Below, piece after piece: positions 1 through 62,514 of a stretch of DNA of 64,000 bases. The position numbers were made by a program, and so were the translations under genes. The notes beneath the pieces were generated by a model. It saw nothing but the letters and a program-made list of their open reading frames with translations, searched no databases and was not told the DNA's origin. Each line of letters opens with the position of its first letter. Position 1 is the first letter of the stretch. The stretch covers positions 68,363-132,362 of the forward strand of contig JAGVWA010000001.1 of assembly GCA_018304505.1 (NCBI GenBank), read 5' to 3'. Source of the stretch: Nanobdellati archaeon (GTDB taxonomy: Archaea; B1Sed10-29; JAGVWA01).

Positions 1-29
1 ATTGTAACGATCAAAAAAGGAAGAATAAC

Positions 30-1313
30 ATGAATCACGAACTAATCATACTCGGCATCATTTTAGCCACGATTCCTGCATGGATTTTCGGCAGGCACTT
101 TAAGTCAGCCCAGAATCACGGGCCACTGGTCTTGTGGAAAACCAAGAAGGGCCTAAAGTACCTGGATAAGCTGGCTGCACACGAGAATTTCTTTACCGTG
201 CTAGCCGACTTGGGCATCATATTCTGCCTTGGCGTCTTCGGCGCGTATTACTTCTACAAGAAAAAAACGCATTCGCTCAGGCGCATCATTGCTTATTACG
301 TTTTCTTCCTCGCCGCAGGTTACGGCATCTACTACATAGCAACGCTTAACACCACCGGCCTTGATCTGCTCGCAGCCCTCGCCGTTGGGGGCTTTGCCCT
401 CTTTATAACCTACTCGCTGGTACTCAACACGGGCCTAATAATAATGAGCTACCTCCTCGGCATGGCCCCTAGCCCCGGCATTGCACCGGTTATTCCAGGT
501 GTCGAAATCCCCGGATCACCGTTGTTTGTCCCGCTGGTTCCTGGCGTCATTGCCCTGATAATTCTGATGGTGGTGCACGAGTTCAGCCACGGCATCCTCG
601 CGAGGGTTGAAAAAATCCACGTGAAGTCCCTCGGCATCCTTAGCCTGGGCATCTTCCCTATAGGCGCATTTACCGAACCTGACGAGGCGCAGCTAAAACG
701 CGTGGATGAACAGCGACGCATGCGGGTTTACGCGGCCGGCTCGATGGCGAATTTTGCAGCCATGGCCTTTTTTCTGTTGCTGCTGTTCGGAGCGCAATCG
801 CTAATCTCAGATGGGATGCAGCAGGAGTACCTCTCGACGCTGGATTACATCAACGTCACAGGCACAGCAGCGGGCTTAGAACGTCTTGCTGGCTTGCAGA
901 TCTACAACACCCAAGATGTTTTTTCTCAAGAGCGGGTTCCAGGAAAACAGCTGACACTACAAACCAACCAAGGCGACATCCAGGTTACCAGAAACGATCA
1001 GGGCATGATCGGCATATCAAGCTACACGGCGCACCAGTTCATGCAGCCAAGCCTCGGGTTCCAGGTAAAACAGGGCTTGCTTGAGGTGCTTTTGTGGTCC
1101 TTCATGCTGAACCTGCTTGTAGGCATTGTCAACTTCCTGCCCTTTTTCGTGTTTGACGGGGCCAAGATCTTTGAAGACGCCGTGAAGTTTTATGGAAGAA
1201 CACTCGGTACGCCTGACGGGATTTTTGCACACAGTGCCACGGTCTCGATGAGCATCTTCATCTTTATCCTGTTGATAATAAATGTGATGCCGTACTTCGT
1301 GGCGCGCATTTAG
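30..1313 (+). CDS. Site-2 protease (peptidase M50, RseP-like) membrane zinc metalloprotease
   Basis: Multi-TM protein with HEFSHG (HExxH) motif and downstream NLLPFFVFDG (LDG) motif typical of the M50 family. Confidence 0.75.
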   Translation: MNHELIILGIILATIPAWIFGRHFKSAQNHGPLVLWKTKKGLKYLDKLAAHENFFTVLADLGIIFCLGVFGAYYFYKKKTHSLRRIIAYYVFFLAAGYGIYYIATLNTTGLDLLAALAVGGFALFITYSLVLNTGLIIMSYLLGMAPSPGIAPVIPGVEIPGSPLFVPLVPGVIALIILMVVHEFSHGILARVEKIHVKSLGILSLGIFPIGAFTEPDEAQLKRVDEQRRMRVYAAGSMANFAAMAFFLLLLFGAQSLISDGMQQEYLSTLDYINVTGTAAGLERLAGLQIYNTQDVFSQERVPGKQLTLQTNQGDIQVTRNDQGMIGISSYTAHQFMQPSLGFQVKQGLLEVLLWSFMLNLLVGIVNFLPFFVFDGAKIFEDAVKFYGRTLGTPDGIFAHSATVSMSIFIFILLIINVMPYFVARI

Positions 1314-1336
1314 GGACTTTTTTCCGCAATAGAATC

Positions 1337-1681
1337 TCAGTGGCCTCGCGGGGTCACAAGCGCACCTTGGAGATCATCCGGAACACCATTGTCGCCATTG
1401 ATGAAGTCAGTCAGCACTTGCGAGGCGCGCTCTGCTTTTTCAAGATCTATTGTATCATTGCGGCTTATGTCACGCACCCATCGGCACAACCGCATGTCCT
1501 CAATTTTAGTGACCTTCCTATGTAGCTTGTCCTGTTCCACCTGCGTTAAGGCAATGCCATAACCTGTTTGGTAGCCTATAGGCAAAATCCTTACAAGGTT
1601 GTGTGGCTTTATTGAGGTAGCTAGTGGAACCTGCGCCTTGTAGTCATCATATTTCATTAATTGCGCCCACATACAGATCAC
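1337..1681 (-). CDS. hypothetical protein
   Basis: 114-aa ORF with no recognisable motif; it fits the intergenic spacing. Confidence 0.3.
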   Translation of the reverse strand: MICMWAQLMKYDDYKAQVPLATSIKPHNLVRILPIGYQTGYGIALTQVEQDKLHRKVTKIEDMRLCRWVRDISRNDTIDLEKAERASQVLTDFINGDNGVPDDLQGALVTPRGH

Positions 1682-1831
1682 TGCCAGAAAAGCATATACG
1701 AAATTATCTGCACCTTATTAAATATAAAGTTAACTAAAGCTAACGCCACACCCCAACAAATAAAGAAAAAAGAGAGAAAGGGATAGCCCTTGTAAGGGGG
1801 CTATTCAGTTGTTTGTTACTGGTTTGGGTTT

Positions 1832-2908
1832 TTATCGCAGGAAGCTTAGGCCCATCATTTCTTCTGGCACGTCCCTGCCGCGCGCTGCGGGCGCTTGGCT
1901 CCTGCCCCGTATGTGGGCACTCTTGACGCCAGTAAGGATTGCGATGACCTCTATCTTGCCTTCGTTTTCAGGCACAACCCTGGCACCCCAGATTACAGGG
2001 TTCTCTGGAGGCAGGCTCTCTGTGAGCATTTCGCCGATTTTGTTGCACTCCCCTAGTGTGAGATCGTTGCCACCGGTTATGTGTATCAGTGCACCCTTTG
2101 CTGTGGAGTAGTCCACGTCTAGCAGCGAGTTGTTGAGCGTGTCGTTTACAACCTCTTCCACCCTGCTGTGTCCGCGGGCCTCTCCAACGCTGATCATTGA
2201 CACACCGCCGTGCGTCATGGTTGCCCTGACGTCTGCGAAGTCCAGGTTAATGAGGCTCGGGGTTGTGATTGTTTCTGTTATGCCCTTTACTGCCCGCGCC
2301 ATGACTTCGTCAGCAACGCTGAATGCTTCTTCCAAAGGCAAGTTCGGCACAAGTTCAACAAGTCGGTTGTTGTCTAGAATGATTACAGTGTCAGCAACCT
2401 CTTGCAGCCTTTCTATGCCTTGGTCTGCTTTCTGTAGTCTTGCGCGTTCTAACTTGAATGGGTATGTCACCATGGCAATGACGATCGCACCTGTTTCCTT
2501 TGCAATGTCTGCAATTACGGGTGCTGCGCCCGTGCCTGTGCCTCCGCCCATGCCGGCTGTGATGAACAACATATCGACACCGTCAAGTAATTGAGACAAA
2601 GCTGCTCTTGAGACTTCTGCTGATTTTTCTCCCACATCAGCGAAGCCTCCTGCGCCCAATCCTCGTGTTACACTCGCTCCGATCAAGAGTTTCTTGACAG
2701 AGTCGTGTACCAGGGTTAGATGTTGCCTGTCAGTGTTGACGGCAATTAGATCTGCGCCAGTAATTCCTATCCTGGCGAGCCTGTTCAAAGTGTTATTTCC
2801 GCCGCCACCGACGCCGATAACACTAATTCGCGGGCCATCAACAAGAGTTGTTGGGGCCTTTTTGTTTCCTTTATCAAGGGAAATGGCATCTCTTACAATA
2901 GATTCCAC
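1832..2908 (-). CDS. ftsZ: Cell division GTPase FtsZ
   Basis: Tubulin/FtsZ signature GGGTGTG (here [15 protein letters not shown]) and N-terminal GGGGNN motif; 358 aa. Confidence 0.9.
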
Positions 2909-3216
2909 TAAACGTCACCTCGAACAAATAACTCCATTCTCATATATATATGTATCGAAACGAAATCGGGCCCAGAAAGACACGTCCATCCAAACGTGGC
3001 TTTTTCTGCTAGCGATTTCATTTCTCTTTCCCGATGTTCTCCTGATTTTTTCGAGCTGACTATGTTGACTAAATTGACTAAATGCAAGATGAAAAATAAC
3101 TAACTGCACAAAATTCAAACCGATTTAAACCAGATAAGTTCACAAAATCACTATACGTAAGCCAATCCACAAAGATAGCCGATGTTGCGAACCAACATTA
3201 TATATATCGTTCAATT

Positions 3217-3495
3217 TTATTCAGGTCTCAGTACCGAGAGCGCGCCGCTTTCTTCCATTTCACGAGTCTTCTCAATTCCAAGCAACTTAGTTGCACCATT
3301 AATTATGGCCTCGCCCCACGCGCGTTTTTCTTCTGGCGTCAAGTCCACCATTTCTATTTTTTCAAAACCCGCGGCAGTATTCCTCGACTCCCTTAGGACA
3401 CCCCTGAGAAGATTAGCTGCAACCACCTCGCTCATTCCCCCATAGGCCCTTCTGAAACCATCTTGGCCAGCAATGTCAGTAACAGCGTTCCACAT
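3217..3495 (-). CDS. small hypothetical protein adjacent to ftsZ (start uncertain, alternatives at 3522 and 3555)
   Basis: ORF of 92-112 aa. A palindromic TATA-overlapping site lies immediately upstream on the minus strand. Confidence 0.35.
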   Translation of the reverse strand: MWNAVTDIAGQDGFRRAYGGMSEVVAANLLRGVLRESRNTAAGFEKIEMVDLTPEEKRAWGEAIINGATKLLGIEKTREMEESGALSVLRPE

Positions 3496-47056: not shown

Positions 47057-47287
47057 CGGGCCTTAAAAGTAAAGGAATTTTATAACCGCCCCTATCAAAA
47101 AAGCCAGCAACGCAAAGCCTATGGCTATGTTCCAGTAAATCAGGCCCCGCAATTCGAGCTGCCTCCTACGGAGAAGCTCATTCTGAACCTCCAGCATTCT
47201 TAGTCTGTACCCTCCCCCTGAATCAGGTGCAGGCATAACTGCTTTTATTGCTGCCTTTACTGCCCTTGGTTTTGGTTGCCGCCATTT

Positions 47288-48845: not shown

Positions 48846-48916
48846 AATGAACGCTTGATTAATAAAACCTACGCCATTGCCAAAAAATTTGGTCCAAAAC
48901 CCCTGTTCATTTATAA

Positions 48917-48928
48917 AGCTTTATATAT
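48917..48928 (+). promoter_or_regulatory. BRE/TATA promoter (aaagcTTTATATAT) upstream of the TBP gene
   Basis: Same consensus as the S-layer and GT2 promoters. GGAGG sits at 48990-48994. Confidence 0.45.
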
Positions 48929-49001
48929 GAAGACGTTCAGAACCAATGTGGGGTTTATAAATACCCAGAACAGCCCTAATTTTCAACGAGGAGGTAAAAA
49001 A

Positions 49002-49976
49002 ATGGAGATTGATTTTAACATCGTGAACATCGTAGCATCAGCCAATCTAGACTGCGAACTCGACCTTTACAGCATCGCGCGCGAAGTAGACAACGTGGAA
49101 TACGAACCAGAACAATTCCCCGGTGCAATACTGAAACTAAAGTCACCGAAGACCAGCCTGCTTTTGTTCAAAAACGGCAAACTAATATGCACAGGCGCAA
49201 GAAGCGAAGAAGACGTAGGAAAGGCTGTAAATCGGACCTTCGAGAAAATCAAGCACTGCGTCCGGGGCAAGGTTGCAGATAAACCAGACATACCATTCGA
49301 AATCGTGAACATCGTAGCTGCAGCCAACCTTGAAAAGGAACTTGACCTTTACGGCATCGCGCGCGAAGTAGACAACGTGGAATATGAACCAGAACAATTC
49401 CCCGGTGCAATACTGAAACTAAAGAAACCGAAGACCAGCCTGCTTTTGTTCAAAAACGGCAAACTAATATGCACAGGCGCAAGAAGCGAAGAAGACGTAG
49501 GAAAAGCCCTGTCAGTAGCCGTGGAAGCCATAAAAGACAACATCAAGGGCAAGGCCAAGGAGAAGCCCAAGGAGGAGCGCAAGCTGACCCAGGTCTCCAA
49601 GACCAAACAAGAGATCATAACACCAACAATCACCTTTGAAGGCAAGAAGAAACCCAAGAGGAAGGTTGTTGCCGCGCTAAAAGAAGCGGTGGCAAAACCA
49701 AAAGCAACGGCGGTAAAGCCAGTAGTAAGGGCAAAAGCCCCCAAGGCAAAACCAAAAGCAGTGGCAGCAGCAAAAACAAAAACAAAGGCACCGACAAAGA
49801 AACCAGCAATGAAGAAAAAAGCAGCCCCACGAAAAGCAAAGGCCACAAAGAAAGTGACGGCCAAAAAAACCCCCACGAAGAAAGCAGTAAAGAAAAAAAC
49901 AGCAACATCAAGTGCAAAGAAAAAGCCACAGAAAAAGGGGGCACTTTCACGGCTGTTAAAAGCGGTCCGCGGCTGA
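49002..49976 (+). CDS. tbp: TATA-box binding protein with near-identical internal repeats and a Lys/Ala/Pro-rich basic C-terminal tail
   Basis: Two TBP repeats (IVNIVASANL...EYEPEQFPGAILKL...LLFKNGKLICTGARSEEDV). A ~140-aa KAKPKA/KKT-type tail follows. Start trimmed to MEIDFN. Confidence 0.9.
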   Translation: MEIDFNIVNIVASANLDCELDLYSIAREVDNVEYEPEQFPGAILKLKSPKTSLLLFKNGKLICTGARSEEDVGKAVNRTFEKIKHCVRGKVADKPDIPFEIVNIVAAANLEKELDLYGIAREVDNVEYEPEQFPGAILKLKKPKTSLLLFKNGKLICTGARSEEDVGKALSVAVEAIKDNIKGKAKEKPKEERKLTQVSKTKQEIITPTITFEGKKKPKRKVVAALKEAVAKPKATAVKPVVRAKAPKAKPKAVAAAKTKTKAPTKKPAMKKKAAPRKAKATKKVTAKKTPTKKAVKKKTATSSAKKKPQKKGALSRLLKAVRG

Positions 49977-53086: not shown

Positions 53087-53368
53087 ATGTGGGAAAACAG
53101 AATATCCGGAAGGGTTATTGACGTAGGCGCACTATCGCATTCCGACAGCCATGAGGGGGGCGCTACTATCCTCTTAGCAGGGCTGAAAAGTATGCTAGCG
53201 ATCGACCGTCAAAACTGGCAAAATCTCCAAGACCTAGTTCCGGGCGGGGGACGCGATAGTGCTATATGCGCACTGCACGACAAGGGTCCAGAGATAGAGA
53301 AAGCAGCATCTGACGACAGAACCGTTGTCCTGAATCCGTTTATCGCGAACATTGGAAAAGGGCAATAG
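53087..53368 (+). CDS. hypothetical protein
   Basis: 93 aa with no motif. Confidence 0.3.
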   Translation: MWENRISGRVIDVGALSHSDSHEGGATILLAGLKSMLAIDRQNWQNLQDLVPGGGRDSAICALHDKGPEIEKAASDDRTVVLNPFIANIGKGQ

Positions 53369-53385
53369 TTAATTTAAACATCAAC

Positions 53386-53772
53386 ATGCAAAAGAAGGGC
53401 ATGCGCTATGCATTGCCCCCCCTTTTATTTCTAGCACTCGTCCTGATTAGCGGCTGCACTGCCCCAAACACGCAGGACATCGATTACAGCACCGTAACGA
53501 GCAAGGCAACGCAGGCTAGTGGAGCAGCACAAGCTCCACGCGTGCTATACCTCAACGTCACGGGGCTATGGTGCGGCCAATGTGATGAGCGCGTAGAAAA
53601 CTTAATAGCAGCAGCCCCCGGCATTGAATCAGTTGAGGTCACGATTACTGACCGAGAAAACGAACTCGGGGTGGCGCGCGTTGTTTACGACCCCTCGCTG
53701 ATTATGAAAGAGCAAATCTCTGCACTGACAGAACCGTACTCTTCGAGCATTGTTTCTGACCGAGTTCTGTGA
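53386..53772 (+). CDS. Lipoprotein with HMA-like (heavy-metal-associated) domain
   Basis: Lipobox LISGC. GLWCGQCDERVE is a variant of the GMTCxxC metal-binding motif. Confidence 0.45.
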   Translation: MQKKGMRYALPPLLFLALVLISGCTAPNTQDIDYSTVTSKATQASGAAQAPRVLYLNVTGLWCGQCDERVENLIAAAPGIESVEVTITDRENELGVARVVYDPSLIMKEQISALTEPYSSSIVSDRVL

Positions 53773-53783
53773 CAAAACCAAGG

Positions 53784-53820
53784 TAAGTGAAAAGCGTCCC
53801 CACCGGGATTTTCTCCGCAA
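53784..53820. repeat. R1: direct repeat derived from the tRNA 3' end (aagtgaaaagcgtccccaccgggatt + ttctccgcaa)
   Basis: On the minus strand it reads GCGGAGAAAAUCCCGGUGGGGACGC-UUUUCACUUA, which equals the downstream tRNA 3' exon with an internal deletion. Confidence 0.6.
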
Positions 53821-53902
53821 ACCAACGCGCGCTTAATAAATGCACAATAAATCAACAATAAACCTTATATACAATAAACACTGAATATACATTGGTGATG
53901 CA

Positions 53903-54139
53903 ATGAATGTAGCTCTAGGAACCCCCTATGAAGTAATCATGACCAAGCTCATTGAAAGAGGCTATGCTGGAAACCAAACCGAGGTAATTAGACAAGCACT
54001 CATGGCTTATGAACGCCAAGTAGACCAAGAGGAAGTTGAGCTCGTTAACAAGGCCATTGAACTCGACATGCAAGACATACGATCCAGCAAGGCGAAAACA
54101 TACAGCCTGGCAGAAGTAAAGAAAAAACTCAAACTGTGA
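53903..54139 (+). CDS. ParD/CopG-type antitoxin
   Basis: 78 aa; KLIERGYAGNQTEVIRQALMAYE matches the COG3609 antitoxin. Confidence 0.6.
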   Translation: MNVALGTPYEVIMTKLIERGYAGNQTEVIRQALMAYERQVDQEEVELVNKAIELDMQDIRSSKAKTYSLAEVKKKLKL

Positions 54140-54405
54140 TTTTCATGGAAATTGAGTTTTCAGAGCTAGCACTAAAACAGCTAGGCAACATGGACAAACA
54201 TCTACAGACCTTATTTTACAAACACGCCGAGAAATTACAAAACTTGCCCCCGCGGCGGCACATGAAATTCGGCATGCCGTTCAACGTTGAAGAAGTGACA
54301 AAACAAGCGCGCATGCTCTATGATATTGAAGAAAACACGATGTATATCACCCGGTGTTTCGCAACCCACAAGGACTATGAGAAATTTTTCACGTCCTACA
54401 AGTGA
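54136..54405 (+). CDS. ParE/RelE-family toxin
   Basis: 89 aa with a 4-nt overlap with the antitoxin and the C-terminal RCFATHKDYEKF (H-K-D-Y) motif. Confidence 0.6.
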   Translation: MIFMEIEFSELALKQLGNMDKHLQTLFYKHAEKLQNLPPRRHMKFGMPFNVEEVTKQARMLYDIEENTMYITRCFATHKDYEKFFTSYK

Positions 54406-54409
54406 AAAA

Positions 54410-54433
54410 TAAGTGAAAAGCGTCCCCGCCAAG
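54410..54433. repeat. R2: direct repeat (taagtgaaaagcgtccccgccaag)
   Basis: Shares the AGTGAAAAGCGTCCCCGCC core with R1, R3 and the tRNA 3' end. Confidence 0.6.
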
Positions 54434-54544
54434 TTTATGCTTTAGAGAAAAAAACCTGTTCTAAAATATCAGCTTGCTTTAAAATGCTCTTAAAGGTCTT
54501 CCGTGGCAACTGGCCCTTTTTGTCAGGCACAACCGCTGTTAACT

Positions 54545-54661
54545 TAACTTCACCCTAGAATTTAATAAGGCATACAGGGCTTCCCTTGCGCCGTATTGGT
54601 GAGAATCCGAAGTTGTTGCACAGAATCTTGAGAACGTCATGCCCTGACAACGGTTTTCGCT
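54545..54661 (-). pseudogene. Truncated HicA-like toxin remnant (38 aa)
   Basis: MSQKRKPLSGHDVLKILCNNFGFSPIRRKGSPVCLIKF resembles the HicA N-terminus (ILKK.GF...R.KGSH) but stops early. It overlaps the hicB 3' end by ~25 nt. Confidence 0.3.
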
Positions 54662-54939
54662 TCTGCGACATCGCTTCCCCCCTCCCGCGCAAGGTTTACC
54701 TTGACCTTTATTGGGGGGTTTTCCTCATAGTATACTGAAAGTGCTTCTTCAAATGCCTTTACAGCTTCTTGTTTTGTATCGCCATAACTGCTGACGTGGG
54801 TCACGGGATCTGTCACTACCCAGACCGCACCTTCTTTCTCGATCTCGATTTTTCTCCTCTCAATCTTGTTGAATTGAATTTCAACAGTTTTTAGAGCCAT
54901 CATATTTATTGCCCCCCCTGCGTTAATAAACCTTGGCAT
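54637..54939 (-). CDS. HicB-like (UPF0150) antitoxin
   Basis: VWVVTDPVTHVSSYGDTKQEAVKAFEEALSVYYEE matches the HicB/COG1598 consensus. Confidence 0.55.
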   Translation of the reverse strand: MPRFINAGGAINMMALKTVEIQFNKIERRKIEIEKEGAVWVVTDPVTHVSSYGDTKQEAVKAFEEALSVYYEENPPIKVKVNLAREGGSDVAEAKTVVRA

Positions 54940-55007
54940 AACTTATGACTGGCTTTGCTTATAACGATTTTGCCACAGGAGATAGTTTAAACTGGTTTAA
55001 ACCAGAA

Positions 55008-55035
55008 TGAGTAAAAAGCGTCCCCGCCGGGATTC
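55008..55035. repeat. R3: direct repeat (tgagtaaaaagcgtccccgccgggattcc)
   Basis: Its last 18 nt (gcgtccccgccgggattc) are identical to the tRNA 3' end at 55774-55791. Confidence 0.6.
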
Positions 55036-55126
55036 CATTGATGATGTGAAATGACACCAACCTTTATATACGAGTTAATACAAAATAGTTATTAAGTAAT
55101 ATCAATTCATGGGGGGGTAATGTAAA

Positions 55127-55420
55127 ATGGCAGGGCACGGGCAAACCGTAATGATACAAAAGCAGATGGTGCACCCATCACCGACACTGAATACAGTAAT
55201 AATGGTCGAAGAAACATTGAAGAACATGCCTGGAAGCGTTATGAAGGTATCAGATCTCAAACGGGCACTACCAAAAAAGGTTAACCACAACGCCCTTATG
55301 GTGATTTTAGAATACTTAGACATAAGCAACAAAATCTACATCGGTGTAAAGGGTATCACCTGGCTAGGAGAACCAAATAAGAGGCTACAACGGGCCATAG
55401 ATACAGGTTTCGAACTATGA
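55127..55420 (+). CDS. putative antitoxin (wHTH-like) of the third TA module
   Basis: 97 aa with a 4-nt overlap with the downstream RelE/ParE-like toxin. Confidence 0.35.
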   Translation: MAGHGQTVMIQKQMVHPSPTLNTVIMVEETLKNMPGSVMKVSDLKRALPKKVNHNALMVILEYLDISNKIYIGVKGITWLGEPNKRLQRAIDTGFEL

Positions 55421-55764
55421 AAACAACAAGGGTCGTTTTTTCAGATGAAGCAGAGGAAGTCTACAAATATCTAAATGTGCAGGCTAAGAAATCAAAAATA
55501 GAAGCCAGCATCTTAAGGGCCATCAAAAACAAATCAGAACTCATAAAAGCTAATCCCCAATACGGCGAGACTATAGCTAAAAGCAAAATACCTGAAGACT
55601 ACAAAATCAAGTACGATGTTAAAAGCCTGTACTGGGTTCCCCTGCCAAATTTTTGGCGCATGTTTTACACGCTTTCCAAAAATGGAGAAATAGAAATCAT
55701 AGCCTTTGTTCTAGATTTTCTTGACCACAAACAGTACAATAAGAAATTTGGATACAAAAGTTAG
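55417..55764 (+). CDS. RelE/ParE-superfamily toxin
   Basis: 115 aa; C-terminal LDFLDHKQYNKKFGY has the H-K-x-Y signature. Confidence 0.5.
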   Translation: MKTTRVVFSDEAEEVYKYLNVQAKKSKIEASILRAIKNKSELIKANPQYGETIAKSKIPEDYKIKYDVKSLYWVPLPNFWRMFYTLSKNGEIEIIAFVLDFLDHKQYNKKFGYKS

Positions 55765-55773
55765 CAAAGAAGC

Positions 55774-55996
55774 GTCCCCGCCGGGATTCGAACCCGGGTC
55801 TCAGGCTCCGCAAGCCCATATTCTATTTGCCCTACAGTGCCTGGTTTGGAACAGCTCCATTGCGAAGCAATGGGGCGAATCTGCTTTTCTACAGCAAATT
55901 AAAGATTTACTGAGAAATCGAAAAAGCTTTGCTTTTTCGTATTTCCCCAGGCTTTTGCAGTTGCAAAAGGCTGTATCCAGGCTATACTACGGGGAC
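55774..55996 (-). tRNA. tRNA candidate, probably Arg (GCG), split by a ~150-nt intervening sequence between the D arm and anticodon arm
   Basis: The 3' part (55774-55820) reads UGGGC-UUGCGGA-GCCUG, then AGAC, then CCGGG-UUCGAAU-CCCGG and CGGGGAC-G. The matching 5' acceptor GUCCCCG and a perfect D arm (UA GUAU AGCCUGG AUAC) lie at 55996-55972. Confidence 0.45.
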
Positions 55997-62367: not shown

Positions 62368-62514
62368 GCACCAGTAGTCTAGTGGTATGACTCGGCCTTG
62401 CCAACGAAGGGTTTCACCCTCTCGACACCTGAAGCGCACCTTCAGTAGCGCGGTGTTCATGATGAAATCTCAGGTAAACAGGCCGTGGCCCGGGTTCAAT
62501 TCCCGGCTGGTGCA
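62368..62514 (+). tRNA. tRNA-Gly(GCC) with 76-nt intron carrying box C/D-like motifs
   Basis: GCACCAG UA GUCUAGUGGUAUGAC U CGGCC-UUGCCAA-[76 nt]-GGCCG UGGC CCGGG-UUCAAUU-CCCGG CUGGUGC A. The intron contains CUGA and AUGAUGA. Confidence 0.7.

Follow-up and report, generated by a model that had tools for sequence, protein, structure and literature searches.

We describe here an array of three small toxin-antitoxin (TA) operons in an uncultured DPANN archaeon (Nanobdellati archaeon, B1Sed10-29, assembly GCA_018304505.1). The array lies in a 64,000-nt stretch of contig JAGVWA010000001.1 (positions 68,363 to 132,362 of the forward strand, referred to below as the window), between an HMA lipoprotein gene and a tRNA-Arg(GCG) gene. 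Each of its units is bounded by direct repeats that match the 3' part of the tRNA, and the intact tRNA stands at one end (Table 1). A first-pass annotation, made from the sequence alone, had proposed that the repeats are copied from the tRNA 3' end, that they share an additional flank and that each interval between them holds one type II TA module. It offered two alternatives for the origin of the array: a decayed stack of integrative elements, or an integron-like array of TA cassettes served by a recombinase acting in trans.

Table 1. Features of the tRNA-Arg(GCG) array in window coordinates, with the anchor of the second array (locus L123) in the last row
Feature	Position	Strand	Remarks
Matches to the 19-mer AAGCGTCCCCGCCGGGATT	53792, 54418, 55016, 55770	+	1, 3, 0 and 0 mismatches, respectively
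R1, outermost copy	53775..53810		AAACCAAGGTAAGTGAAAAGCGTCCCCACCGGGATT; 1 core mismatch
Cassette A	53811-54409		
Antitoxin A, ParD/RelB-like, 78 aa	53903..54139	+	
Toxin A, predicted RelE/YoeB/YafQ fold, 86 aa	54145..54405	+	
R2	54410..54430		TAAGTGAAAAGCGTCCCCGCC; tRNA similarity ends at GCC
Cassette B	54431-55015		inverted relative to A and C
hicA pseudogene	54435..54692	-	in-frame TAG at 54555-54557
hicB-like antitoxin, 100 aa	54637..54939	-	overlaps hicA
R3	54999..55035		20-nt core (55016-55035) identical to copy 0
Cassette C	55036-55769		
Antitoxin C (candidate), 97 aa	55127..55420	+	overlaps toxin start by 4 nt
Toxin C, predicted ParE/HigB-type fold, 115 aa	55417..55764	+	stop codon 8 nt from tRNA 3' end
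Copy 0	55770..55789		AAGCGTCCCCGCCGGGATTC; 3 nt of trailer and last 17 nt of tRNA
tRNA-Arg(GCG), array anchor	55773-55996	-	exon 1 55971-55996; intron 55819-55970; exon 2 55773-55818
5S rRNA gene	L123 8333-8448	-	Rfam, 67.5 bits

Repeats copied from the tRNA 3' end

The proposal that the repeats copy the tRNA 3' end was borne out. A search of the window for the 19-mer AAGCGTCCCCGCCGGGATT with up to 3 mismatches gave 4 matches, all on the + strand and all at this one locus; 0.01 copies would be expected by chance and none of 100 shuffles reached 4. Repeat finding likewise grouped the four copies in a single family, 36 nt long and spaced 626, 598 and 754 nt apart. The copy joined to the tRNA (copy 0) is intact, its tRNA part being made up of the discriminator, the acceptor 3' strand, the T-stem 3' strand and 4 T-loop bases, and the distal copies are partial. 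R1 and R3 are 83% alike across 36 nt, and the similarity therefore runs approximately 17 nt past the end of the tRNA, as expected from the first-pass claim of a shared extra flank; the 17-nt left flank of R3, AAACCAGAATGAGTAAA, resembles the left flank of R1. At the outer end of the array, the HMA lipoprotein gene (53386-53772) has its stop codon 2 nt before R1, and that of hicA in cassette B is situated 4 nt past the GCC at which the tRNA similarity of R2 ends.

Among the findings that, according to the first-pass annotation, would overturn its reading is that the repeats are a generic terminator motif. The AAGCGTCCCCGCCGGGATT core occurs nowhere outside this locus in approximately 84 kb of the genome (the window and approximately 20 kb of flanks), and the other five stable-RNA genes in the window are not followed by copies of their own 3' ends. 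Given that the core is confined to this locus, the motif is not a generic terminator. Separately, an inverted copy of the core with 2 edits (GCGTCCCCCGCCCGG on the minus strand) was seen at 53240-53254, within an open reading frame (ORF) at 53087-53368 and approximately 540 nt from R1; by itself this copy is not significant (0.64 expected per window).

One TA operon per interval

The three intervals measure 599, 585 and 734 bp, and each consists of one promoter-like TATA box and one two-gene operon, with nothing else. On the grounds of gene content and predicted folds, each interval does contain a single type II TA module, as claimed, although some of the labels were adjusted. The toxins of cassettes A and C both have known TA toxin folds, as judged from their structure models. 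For toxin A, the AlphaFold model (pLDDT 86) matched YoeB, YafQ and RelE in Foldseek (probability 1.0), homologs are named as members of the RelE/ParE family and one of them (P0125) carries the Pfam domain Gp49. The label ParD/ParE originally given to cassette A was not retained, as the toxin model has a RelE/YoeB-type fold. The partner of toxin A gave a weak ParD-family match (NCBIfam TIGR02606, E=2.6e-5, below cutoff), and a TATA-like box, aaccttatatac, is found upstream at approximately 53861-53872 (promoter-like repeat D9).

For toxin C, the AlphaFold model (pLDDT 83) matched PfiT, ParE1 and HigB2 in Foldseek, and the sequence gave a Pfam ParE_toxin match with E=0.047. This toxin has 784 homologs at 60-69% identity, spread across DPANN archaea and Thermoplasmata. 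Its candidate antitoxin, a putative wHTH protein in the first-pass annotation, had no match in family or PDB searches; the pairing of the two genes is kept at homologous loci. A TATA-like box, aacctttatatac, precedes the operon at approximately 55059-55071.

Cassette B was first read as HicB with a truncated HicA. When hicA is read through the in-frame TAG, the product matches Pfam HicA_toxin (E=7e-9, above cutoff), which makes the gene a HicA pseudogene; compared with typical HicA sequences, the position of the catalytic His is occupied by Pro. The match of its partner to HicB is weak: Pfam DUF7387 (E=9e-6) and PHD_like (E=0.0045) were both below cutoff and the PDB HicB match had E=0.77. Sequence-only PDB searches with toxins A and C, the HicB-like protein and antitoxin C returned nothing useful, and PADLOC found nothing at all. 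The GC content of the cassettes (39-44%) differs from that of the flanks (43-52%) too weakly to be used.

The anchor tRNA gene

The tRNA candidate first placed at 55774-55996 proved to be a real gene; its span was not correct, however, and the gene has an intron (Table 1). The intron is 152 nt long and occupies a non-canonical position (approximately 26/27), and CCA is not encoded. Run without introns, ARAGORN misses the gene. Run with introns, it called Ala(TGC) with an aberrant variable arm, an assignment that we rejected in favor of Arg(GCG): the Rfam tRNA model aligned the 3' half with an anticodon loop UUGCGGA, and in-silico splicing with an intron of approximately 150 nt taken out at approximately 26/27 gave Arg(GCG) for nearly every splice choice. 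Furthermore, a G3:U70 pair is missing from the acceptor stem (GUCCCCG/CGGGGAC), and this speaks against an Ala identity. We accordingly read the gene from its sequence as tRNA-Arg(GCG).

The intron holds all of the strain single-nucleotide polymorphisms of the locus (55909, 55911, 55925 and 55949) and none falls in the exons. It also contains a near-perfect palindrome with 12-bp arms (55948-55973), near the break points of several short-read assemblies (contig ends at 55915-55969). One more tRNA gene of the window (62368-62514), identified by ARAGORN as Gly GCC, also has an intron, of 76 nt; it is not followed by copies of its 3' end.

Arrays at other stable-RNA genes

The same arrangement recurs at other anchors. 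In the same genome and on the same contig, a second array with the geometry of the tRNA-Arg array is found at L123 5662-8448, approximately 1.5-4.3 kb left of the window start (an L123 coordinate minus 9971 gives the window coordinate). Its anchor is a 5S rRNA gene, the 3' end of which, GTGCTAGGCAGCGTC, has exact copies 1227 and 1876 nt further downstream (L123 7104 and 6455) and a possible fourth copy at L123 5662, where 12/14 positions match. These copies bound an NYN-domain gene, a 649-nt unit with a DUF2683-ParE TA pair, and a nucleotidyltransferase-like ORF.

The sequence GGCTTACGGCCTACACCCA is found at six Thermoplasmata loci (L042, L045, L061, L065, L069 and L084), of which one has a single copy and the other five have 3-5 each. 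At L042 (493-4230) an RNase P RNA gene (188 bits) has this sequence as its 3' end. The cassettes of the RNase P arrays include ParE, HigB-like and DUF2683 pairs as well as other small cassettes. When these loci were compared by blastn, homology was limited to single cassettes and ended at the repeats, while neighbors and order differed, which points to the movement of single cassettes. We also observed that the Thermoplasmata GGCTTACGGCCTACACCCA copies are accompanied by a conserved arm of approximately 50 nt, whose variable part occurs in two mutually reverse-complementary forms.

In a woesearchaeote (L081, 540-5900), five direct copies of AAGAGCGAGAGAAACTT (17-32 nt) follow the 3' end of the 23S rRNA and delimit units of 0.75-2.3 kb, one of which is a toxin C TA pair. 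Three of the AAGAGCGAGAGAAACTT copies have a hairpin partner, GTGTCTCTCAAAGCT. Taken together, these sequence comparisons lead us to argue that the repeat-bounded sub-kilobase cassette is the moving unit and that the tRNA array of the window is one example of a wider habit. Copies of a tRNA 3' end were also seen in a high-GC organism (L094 12688-13613; also L095 and L098), in which the 3' end of tRNA-Glu(TTC), GCGTCCCCACCGGGATTCG, has at least two more copies downstream, embedded in longer, degenerate repeat units.

Flanking repeats at homologous TA loci

We took 80 loci with toxin C homologs from species-representative genomes, the hosts being mostly Micrarchaeota, Woesearchaeota, Nanoarchaeota, Aenigmatarchaeota, Altiarchaeota and Thermoplasmata. 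We compared the sequence before the antitoxin with that after the toxin, and shifted windows served as controls. Direct repeats that were exact over 15 nt or more (the longest being 107 nt), with the copies always 760-880 nt apart, were present at 10 of 54 usable loci and in 3 of 260 shifted controls; a mismatch-tolerant flank score gave 10 of 55 loci and 2 of 186 controls. The flanking repeat sequences vary between genomes and the cassette ends are not conserved; some of the repeats are 100% identical over 30-107 nt. No conserved motif was found downstream of the toxin C genes. One further locus, L025, has the tail-to-tail tRNA geometry of the window array without a distal copy.

Those repeats that could be identified are the 3' end of the adjoining gene. 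At L030 (2515-4504) the adjoining gene encodes an Asp/Asn-tRNA synthetase; the toxin C cassette stands at its 3' end, and the last 18 of its codons recur as a 57-nt repeat that is 91% identical. At L106 a homolog of toxin A stands in a 620-nt unit with a 42-nt repeat of the last 13 codons of a methyltransferase gene (80% identical). Next to the L030 cassette, an identical 34-nt repeat (2515 and 3717) brackets a gene that on ORF reading resembles diphosphomevalonate decarboxylase.

A XerA-family recombinase gene (NCBIfam NF040815) adjoins the toxin C cassette in 2 of the 80 loci. One of the two genes (L056, 4862-6354) is intact and the cassette begins 8 nt past its stop codon; the other (L039, 4403-5595) is N-terminally truncated and divergent. 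In a Micrarchaeota population (L111-L119, approximately 1-3345), HEPN-MNT and AbiEii genes accompany the toxin C pair in a small island of defence and TA genes. This context was the same at all 9 places listed among the 24 contigs read. The protein P0010, seen on 24 contigs, likewise had a single context.

Assemblies and other features of the window

Assemblies from ENA (3), Logan, JGI and NCBI all carry the identical array, which is therefore not an assembly artefact. All contigs carrying flanking or cassette proteins are 99.6-100% identical, and look-ups through toxin C, ORF92, the HMA protein and toxin A returned one arrangement only. With regard to close relatives for an empty-site comparison, a search with the EF-1beta homolog returned only the organism itself. 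A metagenome scan for the repeat core gave, apart from chance matches, only a contig of 1.2 kb that belongs to this strain and bacterial tRNA-Glu loci that are unrelated. The core was absent from viral contigs and the toxin C family was absent from IMG/VR.

The window also encodes an archaeal signal recognition particle RNA, and proteins matching those of the window are listed by NCBI under 'DPANN group archaeon'. Relative to the window, assembly ERZ27254845 has an insertion of approximately 70 nt at approximately 47270-47277 (L001 1778-1854). Within the TATA-binding protein gene (48855-49976), two 206-nt segments (49020-49225 and 49302-49507), 282 nt apart, are 93% identical; this near-identity of the two repeats at the DNA level suggests recent homogenisation.

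Discussion

Four direct copies of a tRNA 3' end, the proximal one intact and the distal ones partial, are by analogy with known islands the classic signature of serial integration. The explanation that we favor, with somewhat less than even confidence, is that a recombinase acting in trans captured mini-elements, one after another, at stable-RNA 3' ends; each mini-element would consist of an att site and a TA operon and lack an integrase of its own. In this scenario, conservative (att-type) recombination would have taken place repeatedly at one site, made up of the last 17 nt of tRNA-Arg(GCG) and the first trailer bases. Each incoming unit of 0.6-0.75 kb would have carried only a copy of the site, a promoter and a type II TA operon, probably in the form of a circular intermediate, and its integration would have restored the tRNA 3' end while leaving a partial copy on the far side. 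Successive captures would then give the order tRNA / C / R3 / B / R2 / A / R1 / chromosome. As the units have no recombinase gene, the enzyme would have to act in trans. A tyrosine recombinase of the XerA family is a candidate and no more, given that such a gene adjoins the cassette in 2 of the 80 loci. The TA pairs may serve as addiction modules that help to retain captured cassettes.

Several observations weigh against this model of serial capture. No tyrosine or serine recombinase motif was found in a six-frame translation of the window and approximately 20 kb of flanks taken from the same contigs, which confirms, and extends to approximately 84 kb, the first-pass statement that no integrase gene was recognised in the window; nor did Pfam searches with 10 larger unassigned ORFs give a recombinase. 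No empty site, shorter array, other cassette number or circular junction was present in any locus-bearing assembly. Elsewhere, approximately 80% of the toxin C loci have no flanking repeat, and a tRNA is found within approximately 1 kb of only about 6 of the 80, which by a rough estimate is near chance. The tRNA-Arg and 5S arrays have unrelated cores in one genome, and either two specificities or a flexible enzyme would be needed. R1 to R3 also share trailer sequence beyond the tRNA, which a simple attP x attB crossover does not predict, unless the att sites of the cassettes reach into the trailer or the repeats have been homogenised. Finally, R3 retains only 4 of the 7 T-loop bases, which blurs the crossover region.

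A rival reading is that capture is driven by homology, with no dedicated recombinase: a cassette would be looped out as a circle through recombination of the repeats on either side of it, would carry one copy of a conserved RNA 3' end and would re-insert by a RadA-type single crossover at the matching sequence of a different genome. This would fit the lack of a visible recombinase and the presence of two different cores in one genome, as well as the high conservation of the anchors (tRNA, 5S, RNase P RNA, the 23S trailer and the 3' ends of aminoacyl-tRNA synthetase and methyltransferase genes) and the range of repeat lengths (15-107 nt), with imperfect similarity beyond the exact core. There is also precedent, in that the rRNA genes flanking hypervariable region 2 of SAR11 are thought to be sites of homologous recombination (PMC2217521). 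We nevertheless consider homology-driven capture unlikely, although by its structure alone the array would fit either this reading or capture by a recombinase in trans. Exact identity in the arrays of this genome extends over just 15-20 nt, which is very short for homologous recombination, and the conserved arms of approximately 30-50 nt that adjoin the core in the RNase P and 5S arrays resemble att arms to which a protein binds; moreover, the origin of the first repeat-flanked copy is left unaccounted for. The decayed stack of the first-pass annotation, taken here to mean that three full-size elements, integrase-bearing viruses or plasmids, integrated at the tRNA in turn and lost everything except their addiction modules, seems to us improbable. 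It is well established that integrated elements can decay until att-flanked remnants are left and that tandem accretion follows (PMC5704250; bioRxiv 10.1101/2020.12.28.424599). TA modules are resistant to loss, and the pseudogenization of HicA and the degeneracy of R2 are signs of decay in the array itself. Yet the three intervals hold no fragment of a non-TA gene and no remnant of an integrative and conjugative element (ICE), an integrative and mobilizable element or a provirus. The precise repeat-bounded unit of promoter and TA operon recurs in no fewer than 10 other genomes and again at the 5S array of this one, the same cassette occurs between different neighbors in the RNase P arrays, and viral contigs in IMG/VR lack the toxin C family. 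It is the intervals of promoter and TA operon only, the recurrence of the unit elsewhere and the second array at 5S that make a cassette array the better fit.

Insertion with target duplication is a further alternative. Here a transposase-, casposase- or Cas1-like integrase would make staggered cuts at the RNA 3' end and gap repair would duplicate the target, much as CRISPR repeats are duplicated; casposons are known to target tRNA 3' ends. Such a mechanism could explain why the repeats span trailer and tRNA, as this fits one contiguous duplicated block better than it fits a simple att crossover, and why some repeats at other loci are perfectly identical. However, the length of the duplication is not fixed across loci, the cassettes have neither terminal inverted repeats nor conserved ends and no such enzyme is visible. 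In addition, bookkeeping of the repeats shows that no insertion order reproduces the flanks of R2 and R3, and target duplication is therefore only a minor rival that we think very unlikely. A true integron, or a cluster of attC sites lacking an integron integrase (CALIN), with cassettes moved by IntI, has the least to recommend it, and we give it next to no credence. Integrons and integrase-less attC clusters have been described in Archaea and resemble the present array in cassette size and form; TA proteins make up 10.5% of their annotated cassette proteins (PMC9668308). Nonetheless, DNA between the cassettes of the window folds no better than shuffled sequence on either strand (z -0.4 to -1.9), and as sites without an attC-like fold do not make an integron, the strict sense of the "integron-like" alternative in the first-pass annotation could not be kept. 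The sites are 19-36 nt long and plainly tRNA sequence, as opposed to the imperfect palindromes of 57-141 nt that constitute attC, and on reading of the sequence they contain no R''/R' boxes (RYYYAAC/GTTRRRY). Whereas integron cassettes are mostly promoterless and in one orientation, cassettes A and C have TATA boxes of their own and B is inverted. No IntI with its extra domain was found in the window and the flanks scanned.

With regard to novelty, neither accretion in tandem at tRNA genes nor the TA-rich cassette array is new in itself. What seems new, in that we found no description in the literature searched, is that the units are bare TA operons with no recombinase in cis. It also seems new that tRNA, 5S, RNase P and 23S ends serve as the repeated site, with a spread over DPANN archaea and Thermoplasmata. 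A broader proposal, which we put forward more tentatively than serial capture at the tRNA itself and regard as doubtful, is that DPANN archaea and Thermoplasmata possess an integron-like means of capturing sub-kilobase TA and defence cassettes at the 3' ends of stable-RNA genes (tRNA, 5S rRNA, RNase P RNA and the 23S trailer) and some conserved protein genes, by a host or trans-acting enzyme or by short homology and not by an integrase that the element encodes. If such a capture system exists, each cassette would carry a copy of the anchor 3' end as its recombination site.

How TA modules move between genomes is largely unexplained, as most have no mobility genes. The TA pairs described here are discrete, repeat-bounded units of 0.6-0.9 kb stacked at stable-RNA ends in very small archaeal genomes. 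If capture by a trans-acting recombinase or by short homology is correct, it would represent a general route by which DPANN archaea acquire accessory and defence genes, and it would account for the small tRNA, 5S and RNase P fragments found in archaeal genomes. The arrays also provide defined sites of 20-45 nt as a substrate for archaeal recombinases such as XerA.

Comparison with known systems

At the level of the individual operons, the cassettes resemble known type II TA modules (RelBE/YefM-YoeB, HicAB and ParDE/HigBA) in having two small overlapping genes, predicted toxin folds (A and C) and a member of the HicA Pfam family. They differ in that the antitoxins are matched weakly (A and B) or not at all (C) and HicA is inactivated. 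In their organization, the units bring to mind integrative mobile elements exploiting Xer (IMEX), such as CTX-phi, which use the host Xer recombinases at dif and are small, recombinase-less and stacked in tandem at one site. The tandem, recombinase-less units of the window share these features, but their site is the 3' end of an RNA gene as opposed to dif, and a role for XerA at the array is a guess from its adjacency to 2 of 80 cassettes.

Integron arrays and CALINs have in common with the present array that they consist of small single-function cassettes, spaced by recombination sites and rich in TA modules, often with no integrase adjacent (PMC9668308). Here, in contrast, the sites copy the 3' end of the adjacent stable-RNA gene and are not attC hairpins, and the cassettes have their own promoters and mixed orientations. 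The closest likeness may be to accretion at tRNA and tmRNA genes, as in the streptococcal ICE and cis-mobilizable elements (CIMEs), the tycheposon islands of Prochlorococcus and the ssrA islands of Dehalococcoides, where units are likewise separated only by partial copies of the gene 3' end. In such islands newer units push older ones outward, and CIMEs, although devoid of an integrase, retain their att sites and can be mobilized in trans (PMC5704250; bioRxiv 10.1101/2020.12.28.424599; PMC3146451). The array described here departs from these examples in that no integrase gene was found in approximately 84 kb and the units, with no remnants of integration, replication or transfer genes, are bare TA operons of 0.6-0.75 kb; the host, moreover, is a DPANN archaeon that reuses the same plan at a 5S rRNA gene in the same genome.

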